NCBI GenBank assembly: GCA_964658305.1
Contig: OZ210885.1
Span: 7,378,001-7,442,000, forward strand
Length of the DNA stretch: 64,000 bases
Reading direction: 5' to 3'
DNA from: Leptogorgia sarmentosa
Taxonomy: Eukaryota
Shown: piece after piece, positions 29,530-62,437 of the stretch
How the letters are laid out: each line of letters opens with the position of its first letter
How positions within the stretch are numbered: the first letter of the stretch is position 1
Made by a program: the position numbers and the translations under genes
The notes under the pieces: model-generated
What the model was told of the DNA's origin: nothing
Database searches by the model: none
The model's input: the letters and a program-made list of their open reading frames with translations, nothing else

Positions 29530-30745
29530 TGTACTACTTCAGAAACTCTCTGCTGTCGGAGCCTCGCCTGCCGTGGTCCAGTGGTTCCGGAGTTACCTAT
29601 CCGATCGGACACAGTTGGTACGCATTGACTCGGTGCTGTCAGATCCATTACCAATCACACACGGAGTCCCACAGGGAGCGATTCTTTCGCCGCTCCTTTT
29701 TTGTATTTACATAAACGACCTACCTGGCGCTCCCCAATTCAGTCAGCTCGAGTCATATGTTGACGACTCCAAAGTTCTACTATCGTTTCCTGTAAATGAC
29801 GTCAATAACGCCAAGACCAAGCTTGAAAAAGATCTACGAAATGTAGCCTTCTGGTGCTGTAAAAACGACTTGTTGATAAACCCCGACAAAACGAAGTTCA
29901 TGCTGATTGGGACCAGGCAAATGATGAGTAAACATTCAGTTGATTTTACTGTTTCTTTCATGGGAAAGTCTCTCACTACTGTCGAATCGGCAAAAGACCC
30001 GGGAGTCTATATTGATGCGCATTTGACTTATGACACCCATATCTCTCATCTGGTCTCCTCCTGTCTGTCAAAACTAGTGCAGATCAATCGTACCAAACAT
30101 AGTTTTGATAGAGAGACCTTACTATTAATTATTACATCTCTGGTATTCAGCAAATTGCTTTATTGTTCAACAGTTTGGGCAAACACATACTAAAAACCTT
30201 CAAAAGCTTCAACTCATCCAAAACTTTGCCTGTAAAATCATCACAGGTGGCCGCAAATATGACCATGTGACGCCCTTACTCAAAGAACTAAACTGGCTCC
30301 CAGTCAGTGAGACACTTAAGTTTAGAGATGCGATTATGGCCTACAAATGTTTTAATAACTTAGCACCTGATTATCTATGCTTTAAGTTAAAAAAAACGAT
30401 CTTGTATTCACAATCGTAAAACTCGCAATAATGATAACTTGCAAATTCCTCTGTTTAAATAAGCAAGTGGCCAGAGAACCTTCTCTTATAGAGCGGTCTC
30501 TCTGTGGAACAGGCTCGATGTAGATTTAAAAAACTCTGCATCCGTGAAAGCTTTTAAAAAGCTTTACTTGCAAAGACTCTTACAAGAATGAATGACTGTA
30601 GTATACTTGCATATGTTTTAGTAAATGGTTTATTGATAGAATTTAGAAACCTTATTTTATTTATATTCATATATTAGTTTGTAATTTTGTAAATAGTTAC
30701 TGAAAAGCCTTTATACGAGTAATTATTAAAGTATTACTTACTTAT
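29530..30745 (+). mobile_element. 5'-truncated CR1/L2-clade LINE (RT C-terminal part plus 3' UTR), decayed
   Basis: WFRSYLSDRTQ, GVPQGAILSPLLF.IYINDLP, YVDD, LLINPDKTK, YCSTVW, HVTPLLKELNWLP; stop at 30191-30193; short (TACT)n tail. Confidence 0.9.
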
Positions 30746-30937: not shown

Positions 30938-33676
30938 TCAGGGAACTATCACGTATTCAAGTTCTTCACTACTTCCAGTTCCATTGCTAGTCATGTTTGG
31001 CGTAGAATGCTGTTGAAAATCTTTGTCTGGTTGTGCATGATGTTTCTCAACAGTCAAACTTTGATCATTTGCAGCAATAGGAACTCTCTTTGATTTGTCA
31101 GGTTGTGCGTACGGCGATGGTTCTTCGTATCCACTTTGGGAATCTGGTATTTGCAGTAGATCTATACGTGGTGATAAGACGTCGTCATAACCAGTATTTT
31201 CATTATTCTCAATATTTCTCTGGTTTGTTCCGACTGTTTTTCTTTTGAAGAGGATACACACTGTGGAAATAACTACTGCCACTACAACCACAGCCGCGAC
31301 TACGATTCCAATGATGATGCCGATGTTGATCGATGAACTTGGTTTAACTGTATATGAAATATATTGAATTATTCTCTGGATCAAGTAGCTACTCTTGTTT
31401 CTCAGCTAACATCGCTTGATTTTGCATATTATAAAAATAGGGGCCTGTTGAGTGTTTCTGTTGCCGATTTAGAGGAACTTTATTGAAAGTGATGGAACAC
31501 GTGTAACATTCAATTGAAGCGATTAAAATTGGCAATTACAGAAAGAACGGTTAAGCTGCAGCCACTGTTGAATATCGTTAATTGGAATCGATTGTTTTTA
31601 TGATCTGTGAACACTGGAATTGCAATCTAAAACTGTGTTTCGTAACTTGTGTTCTATAACGGCGAAAAGAATGTCAATTGAAAAACAGAACTATAAAGTG
31701 TGTTTTTGTGTATTCCGTAACATGGTATGCATTTCGTGTTAAATGATCCACTTTCCGACATGCGAGATTCTACCTATCATTAGTTCAAGAATTATACAGG
31801 GTGTATGAAAATATCCCCTAAACTAACGAACGCACGAAATTTGTAAAAACGTTCAGGTAACCTTAGCACTCTCTGGTTCATCTATCACTGAGTTATTTGA
31901 AAATCTACCTTTTTTAGAGTAGGAAATTTGATGGTGGAATTGGAAAGCTCTTTAAAAATGACTTGCGCACAAATTACTGAGTATTTCTTAGCAGTGTCGC
32001 ATAATTGGCGTTCTCTGTGGTCGTTGGAGCATTCTGGCCCGGGGACTCTTTCATCATGTCTCTACCATTGTGTGACACCCGTTAAACAAAGACCTCAACA
32101 GGTAGTACCCGATATTTCTCAATTGAGAACATGGGTAATGCCCACGCTGGACTATCGTCTAAGTAGCCTGGCCTGGTAAATTATGAACAGTGATTGCCCG
32201 GGTCTATAATCATATGCATTTAGTCAGGCCAGAGTGGTGAGCAGCGAGCTCGATTTAGCTCAAGTGGTAAAGCACGCGGTGCGTGCGTTGCAGTTCTATA
32301 GTTCAAGCCCCAGTTCGACACATTTTTTCAGCGTTAGTGATGAAAACTTTTTTTTCCTCAATATTTTTCTGACCGTAATGGTCAGAGTTAGGATTCTAGG
32401 GTTTTGGTTTTGGATTAGTATATAGAAAAATGGTTTATATCTAACACTACTATAACTATATCAAGAGTAATACTGAAACGCCGACCAGCAATCTCAGGCG
32501 ATAGTCTAGCGTGGGCATTACCCGTGTTCTCAATTGAGAAATATTGGGTACTACCCGTGAGGTCTTTGTTCAACGGCTGTGTATGACGTCCCCGTATTGA
32601 ATCGTCAAAAACGCTTGGTATCTTCAAGGTTGTATCGACGCATCCGGACATGCAGGAGGCCATCATATTTACATTGGCATCATACTACATGCAATCACAT
32701 TGTATTTCCAGATTTTTTTTAAACAAAACTTACCAACACAGGAGCCTTTACCATCTCCAAATAATCCTGGATTGCACGTGCACGTATATGATCCAATGTT
32801 GTTATCGCAAGTGGCATTCTGGTGACAAATAGATGTATTTTCACATTCGTCGATATCTAAACAAACATCGCTAACGCAATGTTAACGCCAACTAAAATAC
32901 AGTAGTCTGGGATATCGGGCTACAAGGCCATGTTCTGCGAGGTTCTGGACCACAAAGTCAAACTCGTACTGAACTCATGGCAAGAACTTAAAATTTTGCT
33001 ACATACTGCAGCATCAACGAGAGAATTTGAGATTTCAATACGACATCATTCAATGCGACTGTTTGGTTACTTTTAGAAAACGTCTGAGATGCTTGGGACC
33101 CAAAAAGAAAGAGCAATGCTTACAGCGAAGATCACATACGAGCTCTACTGAAGAAATCTAATGTCCAGGACTATCTACCTACAGGGGTATTTGACATGCT
33201 TTGCGTCTACGACATGGAATGCATGTCAGACATCATTGTTTTGTTCAGTTGATCAGTGAAAGTAATTGCGATGGCGTTCAGTTCAGAAAAACTAGACGTC
33301 TGCATAGAAGGCCGTATTGAAGTAAGGGAGCTAATGTGTGCTGGCACTTATATGGTAGGATTATGTTGCTAATTTTCCCGAATAATATAACAATTTGTAG
33401 TTGTACTTAATGTACGTTTCCACTATATTTTAGTCATCACAGAATAGATTATTTACCCAGATCATTAAAGTACTCGGTGATTCCGCCATTGTCTGTATAT
33501 TGCCTTGACATTTACAGCGATTTTTGTGAGCAGTATTTTGAAACAAAACTTACCAACACACGAATCTTTACCATCCCCAGATAAGCCCTGATTGCACGTG
33601 CATGTATATGATCCAAAGTTGTTATCACAAGTGGCATTCTGGTGACAGATAGATGTATTTTGACATTCGTCGATAT
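30938..33676 (-). CDS. 3' part of a single-pass receptor: two EGF-Ca exons plus a TM/cytoplasmic exon
   Basis: Phase 1-1 123-nt exons 33676-33554 and 32856-32734 (DIDEC..TSICHQNATCDNN.GSYTCTCN.G..GDGK..C); terminal exon 31347-30938 with TM IGIIIGIVVAAVVVVAVVISTVCILF-KRK and Tyr motifs. Confidence 0.85.
32073..32585. mobile_element. Inverted-repeat element with an internal tRNA-like sequence
   Basis: ~90-bp inverted repeats (32075-32165 / 32492-32580); internal A box TAGCTCAAGTGGT (32256) and B box GTTCAAGCCC (32301) followed by a T run. Confidence 0.6.
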
Positions 33677-42372: not shown

Positions 42373-45134
42373 CAAGTAGGGCGAAAATCGATCCACTGGC
42401 ACTGGGGACATTTTATGATTTAGCGACATTTTAAGCCTTACATAGATGTGTTACCGTCATTTTCTCTTTGTATACAATATGGTTATAAAATATGTTTGAC
42501 TTTCACGTCTGATGGTAGTACGATAGAGAAATCGAAGTGACATATTGATAGAAACTAAAGGAAAATTCAAGGAATTTTAAAACTATTTTCCAAGGCATTC
42601 TCATCGCAGGCTGAATTTTAATCTGCCGGAAATTGAAAGGGATTTCCCCTTTTCTCAAGCCATGTTCTGATTACACTCAGAGTTTTAATATTTTAGCCAG
42701 TCTGTGCTTTATTGTAGCAGTGAGTTTCATGTATTTCGTTCTCTGTCAATATAATCGCAATCATACTACATTGACGAATAATTGAAAGTGGGACAGGGAA
42801 TAACCAAGGAGGTGAGTTTGATTTAAATGTCTAGTAAACCAAAGAAATTCCCGTAGGATTTCCCGTCACAGAGCTGCGAAGATGCCGTGTGTTAGGAAAG
42901 CAATATACCCGTTGAAAGGAAAATACGTTAGACATGAACGACACAAATGACGGAACAAATATATTCAATCGTAATAAGTTTACAAATAGGTATAATTTGC
43001 TCGAAATAATGAACGAACTGCGAAGGACCAAAGCCGGAAGCTAAATCTTCATGCTGTACGTTTATATTTTGCCATACATGATTGTATTGATCGCCATTTC
43101 AAGCGTATTTATATCCCTATCAGAATTTATTTGCTGAAAACTCCACCAAAACCTAAAAGTTTTCGCTCTGTTAACACGGAATTTTTCAATACTGATATTA
43201 CTAATGCTAATAGAAATTCCTCATGACAGGATATGGCTTACTAAGCAAGATTTGCTTACAAATATTTATAGCTGCATTTCATATGACAAGGTTACAATCA
43301 TGATTTAATATTAGTGAAATAATATCAGCAATTACGTTGGCTGATAGAAGTCTATCAAAATTCACCTTCTCATTAAACAGGGTGCTCATAACAATATATA
43401 CTGTACACTTTGGTGAATTCAGTGGCTAATTTTGTCCCCTTCATTAATGATTTTTCCTACAGCTTCTCTAAGGCATTCCAACCCATTCCATACAAATTTC
43501 TTGGCAGTGACTAAGCCAAGCTGTGTTCAGACATACATTAATAAATGATATAGAAACTCTAACCCTATCATCATTGACTTTATACTGTAGTACAGCATGC
43601 ATCAAGTTGTATATTGCATCAGTAGTTTGTGACCTAGCTGGTGATTCCTAGCATGGCACATAAGTCCAGAGCATTCCCTGTTACACAGCGCCTTCACTTG
43701 CTCTAAAAATACCACCAAAACCTCTAGCTTTTGCTCTGCTAACCCACATTCTTTCAGTACAATTATATTATGCTTAATATAAATTTATTAAATAGTGAAG
43801 ACAATTCCAATAAGGGATTGGATTAGATTTGACTACATCATTCTGGATTGAGTCAATTTTGATTTTGATTTCAATCTGGAAGGATTGAATTGCTGATTGA
43901 AAATAATGCATTGAATGTGAAATCCTAATTTTATTGCAGAAAGAATATGACTGGGCCTGAAACTGCAAAACAAATCATGCATGTTTTTTGCCCACATGTT
44001 TTCATTCCTTAAATTCCAGTTTGCATGTACATAAACTGTCAAACTAGACACGAGTTTCTTTCTGCCACTTACTGGAAAAATCCCCCCTGCCTCTCGCACA
44101 TTTTACTTTAATTTTCATTGTTAGATTTGTTAGCTTATGATATAAGTTTTATAAACTGTTTGAATCTATAAAACCTGACTGTCAGGAATTGTAACTGTGA
44201 GATTCCAGACCAGCATTCTGACCGACCGAGGTATAGAAGTCACTTGTTGAGTAATAACTTTAAGTTCATGTAGATTTATCTTGTATTTGTGCAGATGGTT
44301 GGTTGTTATTGCTTAGTTGTTATATAATACTGTCCAAACAAAATCAAACTGCCACAGATACTGCCAAAGAACATTGAGTGTTTTAATTATTTCCCATCCC
44401 TGGGGGGGGGGGAGGGGGAGGGAGAAGAAGGGGAGGGGGCACTGATTTTTTAGTTTGGGTCATGTTACAATAAAGTAGACCACAACATTTTGTTGGTCTA
44501 TGAAACATCAATGAAATTGTTGGTTTCTTGTCAAAATTAACACTGGCTCTGCCCCATTTTCTTATCTCCTTATAGAAATGTGATTGGTTCAGCTGTTGAC
44601 ATCATTGAACAACAATACAGAGTGTGAAAAATTTGATTTTCAACCTGAATAAAAGGCTGCCAAATTAGAACATTTAGTTTCCTGAGATTATAAAATAAAT
44701 TAAGGTAAGTTAATTGTCCAGTAACAAACTTCAGAATGTGGTCAGTATTACCAGCGGATAACAGAATCGACAAGCATGAGGTGCTCCTTGATCGAGAATC
44801 AGTGTTGATAGTTAAGGAAAAGTGCACATATTATTTTCATGAGGGTGAACATATTAACATCTTTGTTGTCAATGGTTTTCCAATATGGTTTTTATTTTAG
44901 TCACCTACATATATAGATTACTTAATGCAATTGTATATAACCCCATGTGTCTCTCATCTCCCACAATATTTCCTGACAAAGGGCCCAGTTGTTCAAAATG
45001 TCAAACCTTATTGTGGCATCATTTAATATGTAGATAGGGGGGGGGGGGGGTTGCTGGTTGTCGATAAGTTATTACATCGCACTCAGACACCCAATTTTAT
45101 GGAATTTGATGACTGTCATAGGTGCTGTATTTCT

Positions 45135-45424
45135 ATTATATTCGGTGCTTTTAACATTATATTCGGTGCTTTTGACATTATATTCGGTGCTTTTAACATT
45201 ATATTCGGTGCTTTTAACATTATATTCGGTGCTTTTAACATTATATTCGGTGCTTTTAACATTATATTCGGTGCTTTTAACATTATATTCGGTGCTTTAT
45301 ACATTATATTCGGTGCTTTATACATTATATTCGGTGCTTTATACATTATATTCGGTGCTTTATACATTATGTTGGGTGCATTCGACATTATATTCGGTGA
45401 TAGTGTCTTTATATTCGGTGCTTT
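45135..45424 (+). repeat. 21-bp tandem repeat in the left TIR (~14 units)
   Basis: ATTATATTCGGTGCTTTTAAC and variants. Confidence 0.93.
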
Positions 45425-45637
45425 CTTCTTCATGTGCAAAAACTTTATCTTCAATTTCCTTATCTTGTACCCAGTCTTTCAATTTTGGCGCGGACAGTAA
45501 AATATGTGTTACTAACATGAAGTAATATGCACAGAAGCAATAGAAAATTGCGGGCATCTATAAACAATAAATGGTGGGAAACTAAAGCATGCTTTATTGC
45601 TTTTATACTTTTATAAATGCAGATTTGGAAAATGCAA

Positions 45638-46987
45638 ATGGAAAACATTTTGGAAAAGCTTAATCTCAGTTGTGTTACTGAAAACTTTTTAAGGGAGAAA
45701 ATCACTCCAGATATAGTTTGCCATCTTTCCTCGTTTGAATTCAATCAGTTGGGGATGAACCACGCCAGCGACGTTATGGCTTTGCGAATTGAGTGCACCA
45801 AATACGGGACTGGGAAGCCAACAAGCAGACGTGATGAATTTGGTAATCTTAGATACGAAATCCCAAAGAGCGTGCTTCAAAGCTATCTTCAAGAAGATTT
45901 TAAAATTTCAGAGATCGCAACAATGTTTTCCGTATCAGAGAGTACAATATATCGTAGAATGAGATCATACGGGCTAAGTAAATTAGAGTTTTCTGATATT
46001 TCTGACGAACAGTTAGACACCCACGTGCGGGGTATTGCAAACGATTTTCCATTTTGTGGGGAGATAATGATTAATCATCTTCTCAAGGGGAAAGGTGTTA
46101 AGGTGCAACGGATGAGATTACGCGATTCTATTCATCGAGTAGACGAATGTGGAGTTACAGAGAGAAAGAAAGGTAGATTGCACCGAAGAGTTTATAACGT
46201 CAAAGGTCCGAACCAACTTTGGCATGTGGATACCAACCATAAATTGGTGCGTTGGAATTTCATCATTGTTGGAGGTATTGATGGATTTAGTCGTCTGCCT
46301 GTCATGTTGCAGTGCACAAATAACAACAAGGCTGATACTCTTCTGTCATGTTTTGTTGAAGCTGTTTCTGGCTATGGTCTACCAAGCAGAGTCAGAACAG
46401 ATAAAGGCCTAGAAAATGTTGCTATAGCAGATTACATGATAGAAAAGAGGGGAAGTAATCGTGGTAGCATAATTACAGGACGTAGCACGCACAACCAACG
46501 AATCGAAAGGCTGTGGCGGGATGTATTCCAAGGCGTATTGAGCTATTATTACCATTTATTCTATTTCCTAGAAGACCAGAATTTTCTTGATCCAATTAAT
46601 ATAAAGCATATTGCTGCATTGCATTATGTATATATGGATGAAATTAATACGAAGCTTAAATTATGGCAAAGAGCATGGAGCAATCACCGTATGCGTTCTG
46701 TAAGGTCCAGTCCACTGAGGTTGTGGATTGCAGGTCAAATCCAAAATCCTGTTGGAGTTCAACTTTCAACGGATGAATTACAGTTTTTTGGAGTAGAAGG
46801 GCTTGAAGACAATGACAGAGAGGAAGATGAATCAGATGACCGACCAATTTTTTCACCACCAATTCTCCAACTCACTGATAACTGCATAGCAGAACTCAAC
46901 TCTATTACAGACAGTCAAAGTGACTACAATGTTGGTAAATACATGGTGGCACTTGAAATAATAGAGCAACATACAACTGGAAATTAA
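45638..46987 (+). CDS. SAM-like + HTH + integrase-core (DD34E) transposase, 449 aa, uninterrupted
   Basis: N-terminus MENILEKLNL..F..EKI...LG; HTH KISEIATMFSVSESTIYRRM; WHVDTNHKL, GIDGFSR, RTDKGLEN, HNQRIERLW. Confidence 0.92.
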   Translation: MENILEKLNLSCVTENFLREKITPDIVCHLSSFEFNQLGMNHASDVMALRIECTKYGTGKPTSRRDEFGNLRYEIPKSVLQSYLQEDFKISEIATMFSVSESTIYRRMRSYGLSKLEFSDISDEQLDTHVRGIANDFPFCGEIMINHLLKGKGVKVQRMRLRDSIHRVDECGVTERKKGRLHRRVYNVKGPNQLWHVDTNHKLVRWNFIIVGGIDGFSRLPVMLQCTNNNKADTLLSCFVEAVSGYGLPSRVRTDKGLENVAIADYMIEKRGSNRGSIITGRSTHNQRIERLWRDVFQGVLSYYYHLFYFLEDQNFLDPINIKHIAALHYVYMDEINTKLKLWQRAWSNHRMRSVRSSPLRLWIAGQIQNPVGVQLSTDELQFFGVEGLEDNDREEDESDDRPIFSPPILQLTDNCIAELNSITDSQSDYNVGKYMVALEIIEQHTTGN

Positions 46988-47318
46988 CTAATTTATGCTA
47001 ATTTGAAAATGGATACAGATAGCATCACTGTGGTTTACCTTAAAACTGGAACATAACTGGAATGCAAAAAATAGTGTGATAATGTTTTAACAAAAATGTG
47101 ACCAAATGTTCTTGAATGTTCTGGAATTTTATCTTTACAGCAGCTTTAATTGCCTAATTAAGGATGACATTAGTAACATAACCCCATTAGTAACATAACG
47201 AATTTGAATTGTGATAGTGAGTTACATTTAAGTGTTTTGATTTGCATTTACAGAATAGTTTTCTCACTTCATTGTTTACAAGAATCTACAATTGCTTTAA
47301 TTAATGAAAAAGAAGAAA

Positions 47319-49952
47319 TCATGGATTTCCAAAATATGCATTTAGGAATGCTTCATCAAACATTTCGAAGAGTTTTTCATCACATGGTAGTGGAATAGTT
47401 ATGGATCCATGAGGCAGGGTCAAGACATTTATGCATGTATTTGCTGTAGGCAGAAATGATTTACTATATTCTTGGAATTGAATCGATGGTGAGATTCCAA
47501 ACCCCAGTAGTGGCTCTTCATCTGTCGACGTTGCAAACTGTAGAATGTGACCTAGTGTCACATCTCCTCGACGTCCACCTAGAATGTACAGTGTAGGTAC
47601 TATATAGTATGTTCAATTATTTGTAATTATTCCTATACATACAGATTCTGTTATTTCTGTACATTTAAATTATACATACCAGCAACGTCTTTAACATATT
47701 TGCAGAATCGAGAATAAACAGCACCCTCAAAACGTCTTCTGTTAGACCCATCTGGACTAAACTGCGGTGCTAACAGGGTATGTAGCTTACGTATTGTTAA
47801 TACGGAAGGTGGAGTGTACTTGAAAACATCTTGCATTGATGGCATCTTTATACAAATCTAAAAGAAAGTTTAGTGGAGAGTTGTTTAGTAAACAGCTGTT
47901 CCACATTAATTAGATGAGTATCTCTTCAATTCCTTAGTAGATCTCAGATTCAGTGGCAAAAAAACAATACTCATTTTTATAAAGGAGTTGTACAGTGAAC
48001 CTGGAATATCCCAACTTTCCTAAGACCTTGTCTTAGATTTTCAATACAAGGTGATACGCTCATATTCGTATCAAAAATTGTAGAAACAACATCAGCTTCA
48101 ATAAACTGTGGAAGCTTTCCATTTTGTAAAATGCTGAGGCCTACAAAAATGAAATCAAAGAATAAAATAATTAAAATTCGAAATTTTGTTATGAAAACAA
48201 TTGCATTTAGTGACTGACACCACGTTCATCAATTTTGATGCATTTTGCTTTGAAGAATAAAATCACATGTGAAAAAACATATTTGTCAAAATTGTTGTAT
48301 ACAAATGTTAAACAGGTTGAATGATACTGAAAGCATACCTAATATAGTTCCAACAATTGTATATTCATCACTTAGAAGCTCCCTGAGACCTCTGTCAAAA
48401 TACTTTTCCTTAATGTCCATTAGAATCAGTCGGAAAAATTCCCTTCTAGGTCCACCATAATCCTCAGCTTGCTATAAATATAAGAATTTTTAACATTAGA
48501 AAATAGAAATTATATATTATAAATGTTAAACTTACTAATCCAAAACGTCACATATTGAATGCTTTAAAAAGACAAAAAATCCTTTTTTAACTACTTTACC
48601 TCTCCATAAAATTGGATTTCTAATGTAAGCAAGGGATTCTCTAATGCTCCAATTTCATCCAATGCAGTTTCTAACAAGTTGTTGCGATCCACATGTATAT
48701 AATTTGTCTCCCCTTGTGGGCACTCATCTTCCCTTTCTATATCCAGCCTTCTCCCTTTCAGTATTTTCGACTGTAATGCACGAAGGATTTCTTTGTTGCT
48801 GTCTATATTGGTATTCTTGCACTGCTCTGAAACGTTTCTAACCATGTTATCAAGTTTATCCATATCCATTGGACCGTGCACGTAATCATCTTCTATTACA
48901 ATAGGGCTGTTGATTACATCATTTATATCAGGATTTTCATCGCTGTCTATTGATTGTTGAACAATGTTGATTGATTGTTGTTCAGCACTACTGGTTTGCT
49001 CAAATATTTCCAATGAAGTAGTGGTTAGGTCACTATCATTGTCAATGTCCACATGACCTGCACTGCTAACAGACTGAATTTGTCTTTGCTGCCTGAAATC
49101 AGATTCATCAGATGAATCTGAAGATAAAATGCCTGCTGTACAGGTGTAGAGATGACTACGCAATTCATTCAAAATAAACTCTTGGTTGCAGCCTTTCTTG
49201 CAGTTCTCTTTGACCTGCACATTGATATCAGGCTTAATTGGAGTAGTTGAAAGATTTTTCTGAATTGGTCTAACATATATTTTACACTGACTGCCAACAG
49301 TTGCTTTGAGGCTACTAACAGACCATGGACAATCAATGATGTGTAACTCTCTGCAGTTAGGCAAGCATCGCAACAACTCAAGCCCACCTGACTGACGAAG
49401 TTGAGGGAAGCCAATTGGTTCGCCGTGATCAGCCTTTTCCTCTGACATAATTCTATTAACAACTTCTTGAGCATTGTCACTCGCATCAAATTTGATTTTT
49501 TTCAATCCCAATCCGGCATTGCACAGTATTTCTTTTTCTATCGAATTTGGAATCTTTGTTTGCAGGCGATCAGCCAAACAAATCATTTGAACGGTCCATG
49601 TTCGCCCGCGACTTACCTTCCTTTTCCGTGAAGTTGCAGACGAATGGCGAGGATTGAAAAGCCTGGACCTCTCTGATGCAATCGAGGATAGGGATGGGCC
49701 AGCAGACGAATTTCCAGACAACTCTGTGTCCTCTGAATTCAAGGTACATTGACCCGCAGTACATTGAGTAGACGCAGAATCAGCAGAAGCCCTACACCTC
49801 TGTCGAAGACGAATGCGATCTCCCATGGTGGATACTCCAAGACGTGTGAGTTCTCCATCAGACATTGCAATGACAATTTCTGGCTCAATACGTTCTTCAG
49901 CAAACCGATGTTTAAGTGTTCCAAGGCCGAGTACTTCCAAAATGTTTTCCAT
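47319..49952 (-). CDS. SAM-like + C2HC zinc finger + HECT E3 ubiquitin ligase (G2E3-like HECT), 5 exons, 687 aa
   Basis: Exons 49952-48600, 48471-48339, 48140-48001, 47857-47680, 47578-47319, all GT-AG, totalling 2064 nt in frame; motifs FYGE-QAEDYGGPRREFF, ILQFAT, LPTANTCINVLTLP (catalytic Cys), terminal YFGNP. Confidence 0.9.
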
Positions 49953-50205
49953 TTATATTACAAGTTACAGCATCAAATAAAATTACGCATAAATCATTCT
50001 GCATTTATAAAAGTATAAAAGCAATAAAGCATGCTTTAGGCCTTTAGTTTCCCGCCATTTATTGTTTATAGATGCCCGCAATTTTCTATTGCTTCTGTGC
50101 ATATTACTTCATGTTAGTAACACATATTGTACTGTCCGCGCCAAAATTGGAAGACTGGGTACAAGATAAGGAAATTGAAGATAAAGTTTTTGCACATGAA
50201 GAAGA

Positions 50206-50410
50206 AAGCACCGAATATAAAGACACTATCAACGAATATAATGCCGAATGCACCCAACATAATGTATAAAGCACCGAATATAATGTCGAATGCACCCAAC
50301 ATAATGTATAAAGCACCGAATATAATGTATAAAGCACCGAATATAATGTTAAAAGCACCGAATATAATGTTAAAAGCACCGAATATAATGTTAAAAGCAC
50401 CGAATATAAT
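50206..50410 (-). repeat. 21-bp tandem repeat in the right TIR (~10 units)
   Basis: Reverse complement of the left-TIR array. Confidence 0.93.
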
Positions 50411-50447
50411 AGAAATACAGCACCTATGACAGTCATGGCATTCCATA

Positions 50448-52309
50448 TTTTTCGCTCTAAAATCAAACTATTTTGACTGTTGTGAACTCTTCGCAACAAA
50501 GACACACGGACGTGTTTTAAGCTTTTGGTATCTGCGAACGCAGATACTATGCTATGATCTTTCAGCTGTTAGCTGTTAGCTGTTAGCTGTTAGCTGTTAG
50601 CTTCTAGCCAATCAGCGACGAGCTTTTGCTTATAATTACGTAATGCAAGATGGCGGCGTTCGAGGAGTGAAGGCGATGTTCGATCGGATTTTTGCGAAAA
50701 TGTGAAGTGCAGTGTTTAAGTACGACGCTTTAAGCAAACAATCTTGACTTTGCAGGTCCCTGTCAATGTGCAGTTGTAATTTAACAAAGGATTTGAAACG
50801 GCAGCGTGCTGTTTTATCGGCCTTTCGATTTGTAAATTGAAAATGCGTACAGAGCACACTGTCCAGATGGCCGACCCATGAACGGTTTTGTCACAGCACG
50901 CTATATAAAAACTGGATACATTCTGTTGAAGTAGCCTGTTCGCAGGTTAAATCTAATCATATTCAAGATGGCGGTCAAAATTGAAATAAGGCCAAAACGA
51001 TATAATTAAATAATTTAATGACATTTACATGTAATATTAGGTAATCCCACGATATTCAGTGTAAAGCCATAGTTTTATACATATTGGAGGCACAAAGAAA
51101 TTTTTTTCCCAAGGAATTTCCTCGTATTTTCCACGAAAGAGTCGAAGGAGGAAGGTGAGAAATGCTGTATATGAGAACAGTCAACACTAACTAAACATCG
51201 CATATTTAATAAGACAGCATGCTGATTTAGGAAATCAGTTTGAGTATAGTTCTAGGTTTTAATGTTTTGTGCGTTGGGCTGTTAGCTTTGGGGTTCGATT
51301 AGTTTCATATTTAGGGTTAGCTTTAGTTTATGTTCATTTATTGCTTGCAAACCAATACTTTAGCGGTAGATTTAAGCGCAACCTGGACTTTTTAGCATGT
51401 CCCATTGCGCTTTCCGACGACTCATCCGTCAGTTCTGCTTCACCATTCGCAGATACATGTGCGCTTTGCGAACCTATTTTTTAATTTTGTACAAATATCA
51501 AACGAATAGATAAATTAAGTTGTCAAAATAGTGCTTTTTTTATGGTTTTTGTCCTTCGAAGTTTCTTGATCTTTTCCTTACAAACAACAACAACACGTAA
51601 ATTAACTTATATAATATTCCTTAAAAATGTCAAAGTGTCAAAACAAGTGTGTTGATTTATTTAGGTAAATTTCATTCTGTTTAGTTCAATTAAAATTCCA
51701 CTATATGAGTCTTCAACAACAACAAAGTTAATGAATGCATAATAAATACACAATATATACTGTAAACTTTATGCCAAGATGCAATTTTGACTATAAGAAC
51801 AAAATAGATGGAAGAGACCATATAATAAATAATACAAACCTGGTATGAAGCACAAATAAAAAGCTTGTCTGCCACAATTTGTTCAATTCTGCATTTACTG
51901 TAACTACAGAACTAACTACACTGTAACTACAGTACACTTTCAGAGCATTTGACATTGTTTAAAATTGAACTTGAACAGTAATATTAATTATATAATTAAC
52001 TGTACTACTAATATTAATTGTATTGTTGTTTAGTCCTGATCAATATTATTTCTACTTTAGGAGCTTATTAAATATTAACTTATCACTTCACAGAGATTGA
52101 GAACAACTCTGACAAATTGTATCAGTACAGTAGAATCAAATACTGATTGATACTAAAATATTCTACAAGTGAACATACTTGGAAAATTTGGGCCAAATTC
52201 TTTAGAAAAATGCTCAATAGGAAAGACTAACATATGCAGGGGAGCACATTCCAAAAATTTCTGGGGGGGTGCCAAGTTTTTGGGGACTGCATTTCATGGT
52301 TTAGTATCC
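50448..52309 (-). repeat. Inverted copy of window 1-912 (flank, BEL 5' LTR and 30 bp of internal sequence)
   Basis: 52309 corresponds to base 1; LTR copy at 50478-51645 is split by an insertion; shares the 5'-LTR-specific deletion. Confidence 0.95.
50527..51476 (+). mobile_element. Helentron-associated non-autonomous element (HINE/DINE-1-like)
   Basis: Inserted in a T run of the LTR; subTIR GTATCTGCGAA (50528-50538) / TTCGCAGATAC (51446-51456); 5' palindrome; (AGCTGTT)n microsatellite; 3' stem-loop at 51459-51473. Confidence 0.82.
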
Positions 52310-54206: not shown

Positions 54207-56806
54207 AATATTTAACAATTAGACAACGAGGCAGAGTTGTCTATGAGCGAATAGTCAACGAGGCCGAGTTGTCTAATTGTTTTAGTATACACTCTATGCC
54301 CAGAATTGTTTATATGAAGAAAATTCTTCAGAAACCTCAGCAAAACGCGAGTTTTCTGCAGTAGCCATATTGTTTTCCTTTGCTTTTTCGCGAACCGTGG
54401 TCTATCACAGAATAGACAAACGGCTGAGTAGCCAATCAGAATGTAGCATTTGTAATAGACGATGGTTGGGTGTATACTAAATGTAGATAGAAAATAGCAA
54501 AGAAAGGGGCTTATCAAATACCAGCATTTGCATTTCATTAATATTATGATTCTATTAATTATCAAATATATCATTTTAGATACTGATAAGTATAAATGCC
54601 TATTTCATTATCCCTACTTGACATTGCCAAATTGCACGCGTGTTTGGCGAAATACCGTGAGTGCGAAGCACGAGAACAAGTGTAATTTCCTTTTAATATC
54701 ATTGTAGTCAATTTCAGTGCAATTTCAATATCAAACAAATGAAAATCCATCGTAAAATTATACGAGAAACAAAAATTTTACTGTAGTTTTACTTGTTTTT
54801 AAATTTACCGCTCGCATATCGCGGGCTCGAAGTGTGGTATTTGAAAAATTATTTACACACCTGTGTAATTAATGTTTAATTCTCACAGTTGTTGAAGCTT
54901 TTTTATGTGTATGGCAAACTTACCTATAATCTAAATACCTTTCACTAATCAAATCTCGTACAACTTAATTGCATTGCGAAATTTTGTCGGAAATCGTCCA
55001 GTGTAACACCAGCTTTATCTCGATATCTTCGTAGAAACTTTGCACTATCCTTGGACCCCTTACTTACTGTTTTTAATGCTTCTTTTCCCATGGAAAATTC
55101 CATATTTAGCGTTGATCTCAAAGATGAATCCAGTAAAAGCAGAAGCTAATGTTATAAGGATTTCTCGTCTGTTGGTAGACAAAGGAGGCGAAGCATTAAG
55201 AGCTGCTCTTCATGTTAAACATCCACCTGCAACTTTATCCACCGTATTGAATACAAATAAACCAGCCTTGAAGAAGATAAGATACAGTGTAATTAAAGCC
55301 TCGCAGTGGAACTTACTCTTTCCTGCTTCGGGGACACCAGATTCAAAACATTTTGATGTAACATTATTGACAATTCTTCTACGAAATATTTGTGGATTGC
55401 CTCCACCAGCGACTGGGTGGGATGTTATGCCTCCAACTAGCGATACTTCGATATCCGCGAATATTACGAGAATCAAAATCTTTAGAAACGACGTGTACGG
55501 TCATACAGCAAGTGCTCAGTTAGACGACACTACATTTGAAACATTGTGGCAAGAAATTTCAAATTCTTTGGTGAAGCTAGGAATTCCTCAACAAGACATT
55601 GATGAACTGAAAGAAGCTCCTCTCAGTCCTGAAGAAGAAAGTTATGTTGAAAAATTGAAGGAATGGAAAGAACTGGAGAATGAAATCTTGTCAGAACTGG
55701 ATGATATTGAAAGTGGTGAGAAAAAGCTTCGAAGTGAAATTCCTGCGTTACGAAAAGCCAATCAAATGACGAATTTCTCGCAAATCAACCGACTATCCAA
55801 GTTTAACTTTACTGGAAAGATCAAAGATCTAAGTGGAATGTTTCACGAAGGTACAAGAGTATGGCTTCTTGATGAGATCTCAAGATGGATGGATAAAGAA
55901 TATCCAAAGGTTATGATTGTGACTGCAGGGCCTGGCATTGGGAAAAGTGTTTTGTCAGCAAGGATTTGTGAACTGTACAAAGAACTTGGTCAACTCGCCG
56001 CATGCCATTTCTGCGATTTTAGAAAGTCAGATTTCAGAAATCCTCACATAATTCTACAGTCTCTTGCGAGTCAAATGTGCGAGAATGTTGAAGGATTTCG
56101 TGATAAACTGTCAGAAGTTCTTTGCTTTGACCATTCTCGGGACTTGCAATCAAACGCTTTCCGTGTCCTTTTGAACGAACCACTTTTTAAACTGGACAGA
56201 CACGATAAACCAATGTTGATCGTTGTTGATGCTTTGGACGAGAGCAAGACTGATGACAAAAGTGAGTTTTTAGAGTTGATATCAGAACAGTTTTCGCAAT
56301 TACCAGCATGGATTAAGATATTTATAACCAGTAGACCAGGGTTCAAAGTACGGAAGAAACTTTCACACATGAATCCTTTTGAAATCCTCCCTGATGACAA
56401 ATGGCACAATTTCAAAGTCGTCTTTCCACAAGATATTGATGAATTGAAGAAACATCCTCTCAGCCCAAAAGAAGAAACATTTATTAGAAAGTTAAAAGAA
56501 TGCAAACAAATTGAAGATCTTACCGCAAACGTTGAAGAAACTGACAAATTATTAAGCGACATTGAGCAGTCAAAACTGTCTACAACTGGAGACAAAGGTA
56601 TTTTTTTTTCACGTGTTCGAACTCATTATTTACTGTATCTTTAAATAAATTTAAGGCCAATGTTGGTTGCGCATAATTACATCCAAATGCAGTAAAAGTT
56701 CCGCTCATCACCTAAATGATGTGACGATGAAAAGATTCTTCGCTAGGGATCGGTGTAAGAATCCCAACAAATATGATTATTTTGCAAATAACTGCCTTTT
56801 TTATTA

Positions 56807-56985: not shown

Positions 56986-59900
56986 CCTATTAGCGAAATT
57001 TCAAAGCGAAATTTCACCGCCAGAGTTTTCTTGCTTAGTTTATTTCACATTTTACAGCGTTTACGGTTTTAAAATTCACCCAAACACGTAACTTTTGTTA
57101 GTCTTGTTTGAGATAAAGTTTTTTCCGTCATAAGAAAAAGATAAAAGCTATATTTTCGACCCGCAGACAATTTTTACTTTGTTTAGCGCGGCCGCCATGT
57201 TTGTTTTGTTTTGAAGAAATCTGTAGCTTGAGCTCTAATTTGATTGGTTCAAAGTGGTAACAGAAAGTTGCACTGTGATTTGGGATTAACTGCACTGAAT
57301 CGACCAATCACAGTCGAGTAATACTTTATATGCAAAATATAAAAACGTTCGATACAAAATAAATATAAAACTATGCTATCCAAAATCTCAAAATTATTGT
57401 AATAGACAATAAGCCACAATTAGGCCAAGCGCAGATGGAAAACTTGGAGAAAAATTTACCAGCATCCTTCTCGGAAGGCTGATACTGAGCAAAATTAATT
57501 TTGGAGTATCAGGACTGCGTCGTCATAAAACGTTGCTAAAAAAAATACTCTCGATTCTTCATATAATTCAATTGCTCGACCATACTTGATTTATTGCTCT
57601 GACAACCCAGCGGATTTAGGCACAAAAAATTGGCGACATTGATTCGTAATCGAATACGCAACTGGATCTATTTTTTCTACATAATCGATTTTTAGAAAAA
57701 CCTCTTCGCACGAATTTGAGCTAATTATTCAAGATTAACTATTCTATATTTATATTTTCTAGATTTCCATAATTTAACTTCAGAATTCTCTCTCGTACAT
57801 CCACACAAGAAAATTTGCCTTACAAATGAACCGACAAACCTTGTGCAAATGTTTAAATTCCTTGGCGGTCTTACAAATAAAGTGGTTGAGCATTATTATA
57901 CAAACCACTTAATTTCTTTCAATATCGAATCTCCAAACGTAGCCGAGGAAAAATTCACTAAAGAATTACTAAATTCTATTTTTGACATCAAAGCTGTGTT
58001 CGCACAAACATTACATTCGCTAGATTTATTTCAGAGCTATCTTGAACGTCCAAGCGAGGAAACTGCTGGACCGTTGAAACTGTTACTTGATCGCAGAAAA
58101 TATTCATGTACAAAACTTCTCTCACCAGGCGAAATTGACAGTTTCTTAGAGGCTTCGCGTTCACTTCTAATGACACATTCGCTCAACGGTAAAGAAAATA
58201 AAGAATCTCAGGATTTTGAAAATCAAAACTTGGATCTTGATTTGAATGCGCAACCAAACCGTAATTCTCCTCCTCTATCACCAAATTACAAGAGCAAGAA
58301 GAAAAAGGAAAACAAGAATTGGCGTGGAAACATTGACCACGACGACGTTGCTCAAACTTATGATCACAATCCTGGAAGTACTTTACAGAAACCTGAAGAT
58401 GATTTGGTACAAGGCTCCTTAAAAACAAAGACGAAAACCAAAGTGCAAGATTTTGCATGTTTAGAAGAAGATTCTAATCGTCAACAATGTAAAAAAGGAA
58501 AGAAGCCCGAAAGAAAGATATTCAACGATATCAATGTTCCGCAGATGGGAAAAGAATGTCAGGGAAAATGGATTCCTGGGCATATTGGAGATTCTCGTCC
58601 CGACAAAAAGATGAAGTATGAAAAGATGTCGCAAGAAAACGCGTTGAAAGGAAGGAATTCGCTCTATTTCTCGCAGCCATCAACTCGGATGATTTCCGCA
58701 AGAGTAACAGAACTGGAGGATGAAAACCTGTCTCTTAGAAAGCAACTGGCAGCATTGCAGTCCATAAACAAAGAGATCTTGTCAGAGCTTGGCGAAGTAA
58801 CAGTTGAGAAGACGGCTAAAGAAAACGAAGAAAGAAAATCGGAGCACTTCCGTCACATATTTCAATCTCCCTCACAGGAAGATAAAAGATCGGCCATGCC
58901 CAACTCTCGAAAGCCCAGATCGAATGAGTTGGGCAACAACGGCGATCAAGGATACCTTGTTGCAAATGGTTCGTCAAGACCTCCGATCAGTTGTAATAAG
59001 GAGGCAGTACTAAATTCATCATCTGTCGATGAAGCAGCTTCCTCTCGTGGTCACCTCGTCAATGGAGCCGAGGCCTTGGTGCCAGATAACAACCATGAAC
59101 CAGGCGGGGTAGCGAATGTCCGAAATGACGAAAATGAAAGGACGTTCCAGGCAAGAAATCAGGAAAGCAATACTGTTAACGGCTTCGAGCAAACCGCAAC
59201 GGTCCAAAATACAGCAAGTATCCAATCTACAGAGAACTCCAGTGGCGGAGAGGGAAGTAGTCCATCAGGAAATGTCGAGGGAGCCCGCGATCAGGCGTCC
59301 GCATCCCAGCGTGGTTTGTCATTTTCGGTCCAGCAAGATGATTCTGGAAGAGAGTCCATATCATTGAGGAACATTCCACCCACATCAGTTGCAACAACCT
59401 TGTATAACAATTACAAGCTCCTTTTGCTATCCCTTGCACAAAACCTTCTCTCCTCGGACGTCATGCTATTACAAGACTGGACGGCTCAGAATTTCTCAAT
59501 CAATAACCCACGGAATGCCATGCACTGATATTCTCTTTCAACTTGATGAAAAAGGAGTCATCAACGCTTCAGATTTACATCAACTCTCTGATTTCTTTGA
59601 ATCCATTGTCAGATTTGATCTTGTGCATATTATAGACGCATTTCTCCTTGGTGACTATGATCTACTTCGTCAAAGTCAAGCATCTAAAAAGCACGCTGCA
59701 AATCTGGTACAAAACCATGGACGTAGAGCCATTACGAGGAATCCAGGTTTTCTAAATGCCATGAACAGCGGTCAATTTTCGATGAACACGAGCAGAAATC
59801 TGTCCAGAGCACCTGTAAACAGTGGAGTACATAATTCCCTGCCTTCGACTCAACCGCAATCTTCGAGAAGCTTCTCAGATACATCCAATTCAACACGCAG

Positions 59901-62437
59901 TTCTGTTAGGTCTCTGAGAAACCAATCCTCGGCATCTGAGCAGCAAAACCCCGGTAAACCAGCTGGTGGATTTAATTCAGTTAGAATGGCCGAGGTAACA
60001 GTTAATGCGGATGGTCCAGTTACAAGTAAGTGTACCTGTAGTTTCTCATATTTTGATAGATTTTAAAACTTAGTTTCTCTAAAAACAATTTGATGAGTCT
60101 TGGCGACTTCGAGTTGTAACCAAAATTAACCATATATGCATTATTTTTATTAACCATATATGCATATATGTACTGTTGTTTGTCTTATTAAGTTTTACCC
60201 CGCCTATCGAATCGCGTTGTTCTTTAACTGATAGGTAATCCCTTCCAAAATCGTAACACTTATATACTTGAATTTACCAAACAAATACCTGTCACATTCT
60301 TGTGTTAAAATCCCAACCAAAATCCTCAACCTGATCCCAATCCTGATCCTAATCTCATTCTAAAAATCTAAAAATAATATCAGCCCCTAGGCCCCCTATA
60401 AATCGTGATTCATGTGTACCAAACACTTTGTAAGGTCCACAAGCGTTATTTGATTTCTTTATCTGAATTGCCTTGATTAAACAAAGATATTGCGTGAAAC
60501 AAAAATATTAAATACTATCAAGTTGCTATATTGAAAGGGTATTAGCTACTTTCATTTTCACATGATTAATGACTCGAACTGTGTCGAAAGAAAGTCCACA
60601 ATACTGGAATCTAGCTCTGTCCATTTTGCGTTGTTTTTTAATATTTCCATGAACTGCTACGTTCTGTTTATTGCTTCTCTAACTCCTTCTTTAAAAATAT
60701 AGACGAGAGAAGAACAACGTCTGGAAATGATGGAACAAGGACAACTTTATCATCAGCAAATGGCGTACGTAATACTCGGGCAGTCGGTAACGGTGGTTCA
60801 AAACTTTCCAAGTTCCAACGTCCAGACAATGAACGAAGCAACAGTCCCAACCGGGACCCAGACCGAGACGACAACTGGTTATGCAGTCATTACAAACGAC
60901 ATTGTTATGTCAAATTTGATTGTTGTGACAAGTTTTGGCCTTGTCATCGTTGTCATAACAACCAAAGCACGTGCGGTCGAAAGAAGCTGAAATCACGTGA
61001 CACGAAGATGCTGAAGTGTGTATATTGTAACAAAGTACAACAGGTAACCCACATTTTATGTCGTAGATAAAATTTGTAGGCGACGCCGAACTTGTTCCCA
61101 AAAATGATGATTATTTGTGCTAACTGACAAGGTGTATGAGATTAACAATCGTTTGCGTATTTATTTTCTAAAGTGAAGATTTTGCAATAATCAAATTTAG
61201 TATGATAAATATTATTAATAGAGAATGAAGAAATATCTATGAAATTTTTTTAGTTTGGTGAACATTGCTGCAATTGTGGTGCCAGATTTGCGCAGTATTA
61301 TTGTGGAATGTGTAAACATTTGACTGGCACCGATGATCATCCGTATCATTGTGAAAAGTGCGGAATCTGCAGGTATGTTTTAATTAGCATAATCGACATA
61401 ATTAACACACTCTCTTTAGGTACACCAATTAGTCAATCGACCATAATATACATTATGATATATTCTCGGGCTTCATGACTACCACTGCCTGTATGTTTTA
61501 CGAGAGTCGTAATAGAAAGCAATTACAAATACTCGAAACTTCTATGAGAACTATATAGCTCTGACAAAAATAAGGAATCGGGAATAAAGTGTGAGATATT
61601 AAGTTGTTTCAATCGAAAAATAGATTTCTATCTGACTGCTAGGTCCCACTCAATTGAACCAACTATGAGTTGAATTTCACATATTCTATTCACTTTATGA
61701 ATCAACCTTAGGAGGTAAAACAAGCGTTGAGTGAACAACAGATACAAGTTGGGAAATAATAGGTTTTTGGCGGGAAATTGGTTGGGGAGTTTTTATAGGT
61801 GAAGAAATTAATGCAATGCAACATTTGTTTTATATCAGAATTCACGGAGATCGTTCGTTTCATTGTGATGTCTGTGGAGTTTGTTTGGATGTGCAACTTC
61901 GTGGAAACCACAAGTGTCGTGAAGGCTCCGCGCATGACGAGTGCTGCATTTGCTTAGAGGTACTGTTTCACTTTCAAATATGTTTCACTATGTCACTTTC
62001 ATTTGTTGTATGAAGTTTTGGAAGTAATTAATCTACTATGGAAACGCCCTGTATTACGTTTTACTATATATGACCTTGCAAAACAGTTTAGTTTGAACCC
62101 CCACCCCTACCCGCCACCTACACACGTAAAAATATCACAATTTGTATCGAATCTGTTGTGTTTGCACTGATTATCCCAGTTTGGAGAAAATAGTGTATAA
62201 TTTTGAACAAGCTTGACGGGAATATCTGACATTGTGACTTGAATATCCCACATACACCACACCTGAATCACATGTTGTAGCTTCCGTTTTCGATACAAAA
62301 CCTTTTGTTGCACTTTTTGAAAAGTGGTAACGCTTTTCTGGCAGTAATACAAAAAAGGTACAACATGTGCAAGCTTCAGCTGACCGTACTTTCCACAATT
62401 CACGATATTTCGCAACCAATCTTCGCAAGTATACCAG

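Follow-up and report, generated by a model that had tools for sequence, protein, structure and literature searches.

The question raised by this locus is whether a DNA transposon carries its own ubiquitin ligase gene, and what such a gene would do for the element. The window, a 64,000-nucleotide stretch of Leptogorgia sarmentosa contig OZ210885.1, contains a 5,350-bp transposon (45098..50447) bounded by terminal inverted repeats (TIRs) of about 540 bp with the ends TATGG…CCATA. The element has two convergent genes, a transposase and a HECT-type gene (ORF2). The earlier note had placed both genes inside the TIRs and described them as uninterrupted, which agrees with the TIR coordinates and the open frames. 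The features are as follows.

45098..45655 (right bound approximate), + strand: left TIR with the TATGG end, includes the first transposase codons
45135-45424: 21-bp tandem array of the left TIR, 13.8 copies
45638-46987, + strand: transposase, 449 aa from the ATG of the earlier note, no stop
47319..47578, - strand: ORF2 exon 5, C-lobe with Cys650 and the -4 Phe684 (Pfam HECT, E 4.8e-08)
47680..47857, - strand: ORF2 exon 4, hinge and start of the C-lobe
48001..48140, - strand: ORF2 exon 3, shortened N-lobe with just 31 residues from the QNG glycine to the GL glycine
48339..48471, - strand: ORF2 exon 2, DYGGPRREFF helix of the HECT N-lobe
48600..49952, - strand: ORF2 exon 1, aa 1-451, with SAM, middle domain, C2HC finger, acidic linker and start of HECT
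49935..50447 (left bound approximate), - strand: right TIR with the CCATA end, includes the first ORF2 codons
50233-50410: 21-bp tandem array of the right TIR, 8.5 copies

The TIRs have a core of 369 nt in which the arms are 97% complementary, and they extend into the first six codons of transposase and ORF2 alike. The right end is supported by contigs from other runs, which depart from the window sequence exactly at 50447. The element is flanked by CAATTT and TTTTTC, with no target-site duplication (TSD) of 4-8 bp beside it. The lack of a TSD in the window copy may reflect an adjacent deletion or recombination. Of the three complete relatives, L038 shows a 5-bp TSD; no TSD is present at the ends identified for L025 and L045. 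The description of the transposon as intact therefore holds for its reading frames, but not for the TSD, which is missing, or for the zinc finger, which has a one-residue insertion.

The transposase has the catalytic triad D198/D255/E290, with 34 residues between the second D and the E, and its core matches Pfam rva_4 (E 1.9e-75). These results bear out the claim of a 449-aa DD34E transposase; an alternative in-frame ATG seven codons upstream would give 456 aa. The core is preceded by an N-terminal SAM domain (~1-57) and an HTH (~85-118). An HHCC zinc-binding domain before the core was not detected, as Pfam gives HTH-type and integrase-core families only. In two displayed alignment blocks, counted by eye, 54 of 76 residues are identical to IS3EU-1_SK. 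The assignment to IS3EU rests on the Pfam match, the triad, these alignment blocks and the termini, and it is supported as IS3EU-like, since the 6-bp TSD expected of the group is missing from the window copy. In the available text on IS3EU/GingerRoot DNA transposons (Kojima & Bao 2023, PMC10045372; Cerbin et al. 2019, PMC6839031), the elements likewise have an IS3/IS481-like DDE core, no HHCC domain detected and a second gene opposite the transposase, and their TSD is usually 6 bp. The ends also agree with TAYGG..CCRTA, given for fungal IS3EU in the accessible part of PMC12730594. Unlike these elements, the window element has ~540-bp TIRs that reach the start codons, a SAM domain on both proteins and a short HECT as the partner.

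ORF2 is predicted to have five exons encoding 687 aa, with GT-AG introns throughout and a single terminal stop, as had been claimed. The intron positions (profile positions 406, 450, 498 and 556) are common to its relatives, and two relatives are intronless. The domains of exon 1 are a SAM (1-57), a conserved middle domain (~112-235) and a C2HC finger (251-271). The earlier note did not list the SAM on both ORFs or the middle domain, which is tentatively ubiquitin-like based on the model of a relative. The finger was recognized correctly by its CKKGC at 251; however, its CxxxC spacing differs by one inserted residue from the CxxC of 33/33 aligned relatives. It matches zf_C2HC_14 with an E of 6e-4, short of the curated cut-off, and is putatively ubiquitin-binding. 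The note had also suggested that many G2E3-like genes may be cargo of this kind; among the homolog names listed, which are truncated, none is G2E3-like. ORF2 and G2E3 have a C-terminal HECT in common. G2E3 has PHD/RING domains according to the table in PMC6457168, whereas Pfam finds no such family in ORF2 exon 1 or among the families listed for 49 relatives. The N-terminal arrangement of SAM, ubiquitin-like domain and C2HC finger is missing from the human HECT domains in that table.

The HECT domain retains the motifs reported for it, namely DYGGPRREFF at 455, PTANTC with Cys650 and the -4 Phe at 684. Profile searches agree for both proteins of the element, and all 49 full-length relatives match Pfam HECT. 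Models of two relatives (P0090 and P0078) resemble solved HECTs. The relatives' models align with HUWE1 over 272 residues (Z 21.6, rmsd 3.3) and with UBR5 at Z 21.1, where the C-lobe is aligned whole (96/97 UBR5 residues, rmsd 2.4). The catalytic Cys is conserved in 118/120 homologs and the GGPR.E motif in 118-119/120. A phenylalanine at -4 is the rule in HECT ligases, and this position is aromatic in the homologs (88 Phe and 26 Tyr of 120). ORF2 therefore shares with the canonical HECTs (E6AP, NEDD4/Rsp5, HUWE1, UBR5 and AREL1) the bilobed fold, as seen in the relatives' models, a complete C-lobe, the catalytic Cys, the GG.R.EFF helix and the -4 aromatic.

The N-lobe of ORF2 differs from that of the canonical HECTs in length. 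The distance from GG to Cys is 193 residues in the window ORF2 and 196 at the median, and it is at least 250 in none of the 119 measurable homologs; counted from alignments to solved structures, it is 275-286 in E6AP, Rsp5 and AREL1. About 80-90 N-lobe residues are thus missing in 119/119 measurable sequences. The shortening lies between the GG helix and the LQF motif of the C-lobe, which are 81-92 residues closer than in these three proteins. Residues 343-527 of the model cover E6AP 462-761, and no strand of at least three residues was found in model residues 420-600. The E2-binding small subdomain was taken as α6-α8 and β5-β6; its strands β5-β6 are described in the available text of PMC3077247. 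The missing segment is most likely this subdomain, lost family-wide, although the alignments give ranges only. The claim of a HECT ligase is therefore upheld for the catalytic Cys, the -4 aromatic and the fold, but a canonical ligase is not established. Since the E2-docking part appears to be missing, ORF2 would need an unusual way of working, and ligase activity may be absent altogether.

Transposase and ORF2 each start with a SAM domain; the two domains are homologous but diverged long ago, and the TIRs include the first codons of both. An HMM of the ORF2 SAM matches 100 of 102 long transposases, and among 70 long HECT homologs the SAM was found in just 24. The SAMs of ORF2 fall into one group and those of the transposase into another, with support of 100/100, in 200/200 bootstrap trees built from 80 of the 162 SAMs and 56 columns, with the bootstrap not fully settled. 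This shows that the two domains diverged once, long ago, and were then both retained. A shared SAM arising as a by-product of repeated gene conversion between the TIRs was rejected, as the two groups stay apart in all trees; homogenisation between the two gene starts is limited to the first six codons. A prediction of the complex between transposase 1-190 and ORF2 1-275, run without supplied alignments or folded controls, scored 0.15 (mark, 0.34) and bears on binding in neither direction.

We favor, with a probability of roughly 45% for the mechanism as a whole, an IS3EU-like transposon with two genes in which the shortened HECT would be a non-canonical ubiquitin ligase whose substrate is the transposase complex of the same element. 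The mirrored TIR ends would supply the same promoter to both genes, and therefore the transposase and ORF2 would be co-expressed. A contact between the two SAM domains may dock ORF2 onto the transposase. Cys650 would then receive ubiquitin without the usual E2-binding subdomain, with the E2~ubiquitin conjugate probably held by the C2HC finger or the ubiquitin-like middle domain. The proteins that ORF2 tags with ubiquitin may be the transposase or those present at the insertion site; such tagging could remove the strand-transfer complex so that repair can proceed, or could limit the amount of transposase. A more specific version is possible but doubtful, namely that this is the minimal HECT of an ancient animal transposon lineage, a SAM-docked thioester E3 of a new mechanistic class, which lacks the canonical E2-binding subdomain and completes or tunes transposition by ubiquitylating the transpososome.

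It could be argued that ORF2 does nothing for the element and is Pack-type cargo, a host gene captured passively. Near-identical ORF2 copies are almost neutral (dN/dS 0.28-1.02, 8 pairs), 12 of 17 classified ORF2 changes within the species are non-synonymous, and dead copies exist, such as run X6 contigs in which ORF2 has a stop and frameshifts. However, drift among terminal copies is expected of any transposon gene, and the transposase changes are also non-synonymous in 5/5. Between lineages, the gene does not evolve neutrally, as the earlier note had allowed it might: dN/dS is 0.06-0.34 in 12 of 19 non-independent pairs (69-92% identity), 0.48-0.58 in 3 and has saturated dS in 4, which points to purifying selection. 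Nor does the gene occur in this copy only. A convergent transposase is present at 4 of the 5 ORF2-homolog loci whose sequence continues for 1.5 kb or more past the last HECT exon, and the fifth is the twin of a paired locus and ends where the transposase begins. In L025, L038 and L045, the TIRs enclose both genes. The contigs of 5 of 49 ORF2 homologs are exactly as long as that of a transposase homolog, suggesting the same contig but not adjacency. The convergent placement persists between elements just ~38-45% identical in exon 1, which, like the shared SAM and the start codons embedded in the TIRs, argues against capture. The HECT gene was found at only one of six distant transposase loci with long flanks, and its absence from the other five would fit capture. 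In rust-fungal IS3EU, an alpha-kinase occupies the second-gene position (available text of PMC12730594); therefore, transposition in the superfamily as a whole does not depend on the HECT gene. Passive capture is largely refuted and very improbable. The convergent pairs, shared introns and conserved Cys agree with the earlier view that the HECT gene belongs to the element, is conserved and is not a one-off capture. ORF2 is very likely a functional gene of the transposon lineage.

The target and the activity of ORF2 allow two other explanations. ORF2 may be an active ligase against host silencing, chromatin or DNA-repair factors, with the SAM or ubiquitin-like domain selecting the target and the transposase SAM serving only for self-oligomerisation. 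Conservation of the catalytic Cys fits this equally well, the middle domain and HECT persist in homologs where a SAM was not detected, and transposon-borne TET/JBP genes have been proposed to counter silencing (PMC12730594, in the text available). It is nevertheless unlikely, since the SAM is on both genes in the window element and L025 and on neither in L038 and L045, two SAM lineages have been retained in parallel, and no domain that binds a host target was recognized. The other explanation is that the short HECT is not self-sufficient as a ligase and serves as a decoy or scaffold that reacts with ubiquitin or binds it, either taking ubiquitin from a host E3 or protecting the transposase against ligases of the host. 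The family-wide loss from the N-lobe is in its favor, as is the change of His at Cys-2 to Asn in 94/120 homologs. However, UBR5 is an active ligase and also has Asn at Cys-2, and the near-invariant Cys, GGPR.E and -4 aromatic suit thioester chemistry better; a decoy or scaffold is therefore rather improbable.

Accessory proteins of DNA transposons have been described by Kapitonov (meeting report, PMC3520738). In that report and in the available text of PMC12730594, which covers fungal IS3EU elements bearing alpha-kinase and TET/JBP genes, the gene opposite the transposase likewise encodes an enzyme derived from a host, and the fungal enzymes are proposed to regulate transposition or counter silencing. 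The window element differs in that the enzyme has a HECT-type ubiquitin-transfer domain and the hosts are animals. No published report of an IS3EU and HECT pairing was found; Repbase Reports and Kojima's 2019 review, which may annotate ORF2, were outside the search, and 'HECT' does not occur in the three main IS3EU/GingerRoot texts.

If the short HECT is active, it would break the rule that E2 docks on the small subdomain of the HECT N-lobe. It would be a natural minimal enzyme for studying E2-to-E3 transfer. It would also represent self-encoded ubiquitin control of a cut-and-paste transposon, in a compact 5.3-kb two-gene system for studying how eukaryotic transpososomes are cleared or limited.

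The ORF2 family comprises 233 clusters at 50% identity with E ≤ 1e-30. Matches in the ESM Atlas are HECT or unnamed clusters only, and no relatives of transposase or ORF2 were found in viral contigs. The named ORF2 homologs are from cnidarians, molluscs and hemichordates, and if the minimal SAM-docked E3 suggested above is real, many 'HECT domain-containing' genes in the annotations of these groups would be transposon genes. Molluscan and cnidarian members of the family carry annotations as host 'HECT-type E3' genes, and E3 counts would be inflated if most of the family is transposon-borne.

The element is bounded by terminal inverted repeats (TIRs) and carries a transposase gene on the plus strand and a convergent gene, ORF2, on the minus strand.

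45098-50447, the element, from the start to the end of its inverted repeats, with termini TATGG…CCATA

The earlier note described a TIR-bounded element with a 449-aa DD34E transposase and a five-exon, 687-aa gene, and this element is real. The TIR core has 369 nt at 97% complementarity. The arms are about 540 bp deep, take in codons 1-6 of each gene, and hold a 21-bp tandem array with 13.8 copies in one arm and 8.5 in the other. The transposase ORF has D198, D255 and E290. ORF2 is predicted to splice at GT-AG sites and contains no internal stops. Contigs from other sequencing runs part from the window sequence exactly at 50447 (five in X4, three in X6 and one of 1.2 kb in X1); therefore, the right terminus is fixed and the same end is present at other sites. 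A very high-copy repeat (50478-51000) begins some 30 nt beyond the right end of the element; its summed contig depth far exceeds that within the element in each of the four runs, and it includes a 7-bp AGCTGTT array at 50564-50602. Repetitive sequence also occupies the left flank (44600-45027). A short match to the same transposase profile (positions 155-202) at 33207-33350 probably marks the remains of a related element.

The transposase core is identical to IS3EU-1_SK at 54 of 76 residues, counted by eye in the displayed blocks of the PMC10045372 supplement. The termini fit the TAYGG..CCRTA described for fungal IS3EU in the available part of PMC12730594. IS3EU target-site duplications (TSDs) are usually 6 bp according to the accessible text of PMC10045372, whereas no TSD of 4-8 bp was found around the window copy. 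Among related loci on other contigs, L038 has a 5-bp TSD and the detected ends of L025 and L045 have none. The element is therefore termed an IS3EU-like transposon, as judged from its sequence.

The census of convergent transposase and HECT pairs proposed in the earlier note indicates that the pairing holds within this lineage. An exon-1 profile search gave 43 metagenome loci. Eight extend to the last HECT exon, three of them ending within 221 nt; the remaining 35 stop or are interrupted before it and are uninformative on pairing. A convergent transposase is present in four of the five loci with at least 1.5 kb past the last HECT exon (L003, L008, L025 and L038), and TIRs enclose both genes in L025 and L038. 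L037, the fifth locus and a twin of L038, ends at the point where the transposase begins. Beyond a partial or whole exon 1, L035 has 4.7 kb and L027 1.9 kb of sequence that lacks both later exons and a transposase. On contigs of at least 5 kb, 5 of 49 ORF2 exon-1 homologs lie on contigs exactly equal in length to that of one of 50 transposase homologs, which suggests the same contig, though not adjacency. Introns break at ORF2's profile positions in L001, L003, L008, L011, L028 and L032, as far as the contigs reach; L022 and L030 read through without introns and are either cDNA or intronless copies. The nearest named homolog is from Paramuricea clavata (64% identity across 77% of exon 1), from which a cnidarian host is probable. 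A P. clavata exon-1 homolog, P0007, carries the NCBI name 'Arylsulfatase B' and is apparently misannotated. L003 has a 329-bp MITE-like insertion (3328-3656) with perfect 32-bp inverted ends between its two genes.

The reverse census gave 13 transposase loci in contigs of prokaryotic metagenome-assembled genomes (MAGs), six with long flanks. Only L045 has a convergent gene with the middle domain and HECT, inside TIRs. In the other five, neither the profiles nor a Pfam scan of 94 downstream ORFs gave a HECT partner; their transposases are only remotely related (41-59% in the best segment) and lack a SAM match. The HECT partner is therefore fixed in this lineage but not in every IS3EU-like element. 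The transposases of these MAG loci (L044-L056) are of eukaryotic type, one is paired with a multi-exon HECT gene, and the neighbouring genes include hAT and Mutator transposases, so host contamination of the MAGs is likely. The rust-fungal IS3EU differs in having an alpha-kinase gene opposite the transposase, where the window element has a HECT-type gene (PMC12730594, available part).

HMM searches confirmed both domains named in the earlier note, with a strong Pfam rva_4 match for the transposase and Pfam HECT in 49 of 49 full-length ORF2 relatives. Structure models of relatives (P0090, pLDDT 84; P0078, pLDDT 81) resemble experimentally solved HECT domains, with Z scores reaching 21.6. The catalytic Cys (Cys650 in the window) is conserved in 118 of 120 homologs, and an aromatic residue, Phe or Tyr, occupies position -4 in 114. 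An ordinary HECT ligase is so far not supported, and the domain is non-canonical. The spacing from the GG motif (DYGGPRREFF) to the Cys is 193 residues in the window protein (median 196, below 250 in 119 of 119 with the window protein counted), in contrast to 275, 280 and 286 in E6AP, Rsp5 and AREL1, counted from alignments. The homologs were fetched with a short-HECT query and show a coherent short family, which says nothing on the absence of long forms. The modeled C-lobe aligns whole (96/97 UBR5 and 106/115 HUWE1 residues) and residues 343-527 of a relative cover E6AP 462-761 with 177 aligned; therefore, the models place the shortfall in the N-lobe. In the model, the GG helix and the C-lobe are separated by helices only. 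The gap very probably falls at the E2-binding small subdomain as placed in NEDD4. In the available text of PMC3077247 this subdomain comprises helices α6-α8 and strands β5-β6; elsewhere the same text assigns E2 binding to the large subdomain.

Residues 1-53 of the transposase and ORF2 align with a score of 99, and with the six residues encoded by the TIRs excluded they still score 72, a value that none of 2000 shuffles attained. The N-terminus of a relative's model resembles tankyrase and other SAMs (Z 8.7). Among long proteins, 100 of 102 transposases match the ORF2-SAM HMM, compared with only 24 of 70 HECT homologs. The ORF2 and transposase SAMs separate with 100/100 support in a tree built from 80 of the 162 sequences, so they diverged in one split and have since been kept in parallel. 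L025 has a SAM on both genes, and its TIRs again extend to the start regions; none was detected on either gene of L038 and L045. Residues 117-242 of a relative's model have a middling resemblance to ubiquitin-like domains (TBK1 and Ufm1, Z 6.9-7.2), tentatively suggesting a ubiquitin-like middle domain. The C2HC finger has CxxxC in the window copy versus CxxC in 33 of 33 relatives, and X4 carries a 3-nt-shorter form; therefore, the window copy's finger may be impaired. Its form is also found in X1 and X8.

Selection among copies, a further check proposed earlier, was estimated as dN/dS on conserved parts of exon 1 for 36 non-independent pairs above 60% identity. Nine are almost identical, and eight at 97-99% identity give 0.28-1.02. 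Of 19 at 69-92%, 12 give 0.06-0.34, three give 0.48-0.58, and four have saturated dS with pN of 0.13-0.16. For the last exon, which bears the Cys, 27 of 28 pairs have a lower pN than pS, although pS is close to saturation, and all eight sequences retain the Cys. Among the 22 within-species coding substitutions listed and classified (two indel-tied ones left out), the non-synonymous share is 5/5 in the transposase and 12/17 in ORF2. Run X6 contigs have ORF2 with a stop and frameshifts. Selection is purifying between lineages while terminal copies drift, which is the pattern usually seen for a transposon's own gene. It is very improbable that ORF2 is passive cargo.

The preferred reading, at a probability of roughly 0.45, is that both genes would be co-expressed from mirrored TIR promoters and ORF2 would dock on the transposase by SAM-SAM contact. 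ORF2 would then capture E2, act as a non-canonical thioester ligase, and tag the transposase complex, which would be cleared or limited. A ligase directed at host silencing factors is unlikely, and a ubiquitin-reactive decoy unable to act alone slightly more so. The apparently missing subdomain and the twin SAMs are what make the element worth experiment. The concept of transposon-carried host-derived regulators is already known, since a 2012 talk described DNA transposons that carry conserved proteins of host origin with a presumed role in regulating transposition (PMC3520738, available portion). No link between IS3EU and HECT is made in the accessible parts of PMC10045372 (with supplement hits), PMC12730594 (with one supplement row), PMC6839031, PMC11934779, PMC13015453, PMC6457168, PMC3077247, PMC3520738 or bioRxiv 2021.09.26.461848; Repbase entries may name ORF2.

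The window also has other features, the first three classified by sequence impression.

1677-4545 (+), broken BEL/Pao-like retrotransposon frames
9466-11088 (-), open 540-aa frame resembling a CACTA/EnSpm-type transposase
29528-30193 (+), non-LTR reverse-transcriptase fragment
55007-56644 (+), 545-aa frame with a P-loop, presumably resembling coral HEPN/DZIP3-NACHT immune genes
57720-60066 (+), frames that may include a death-effector domain
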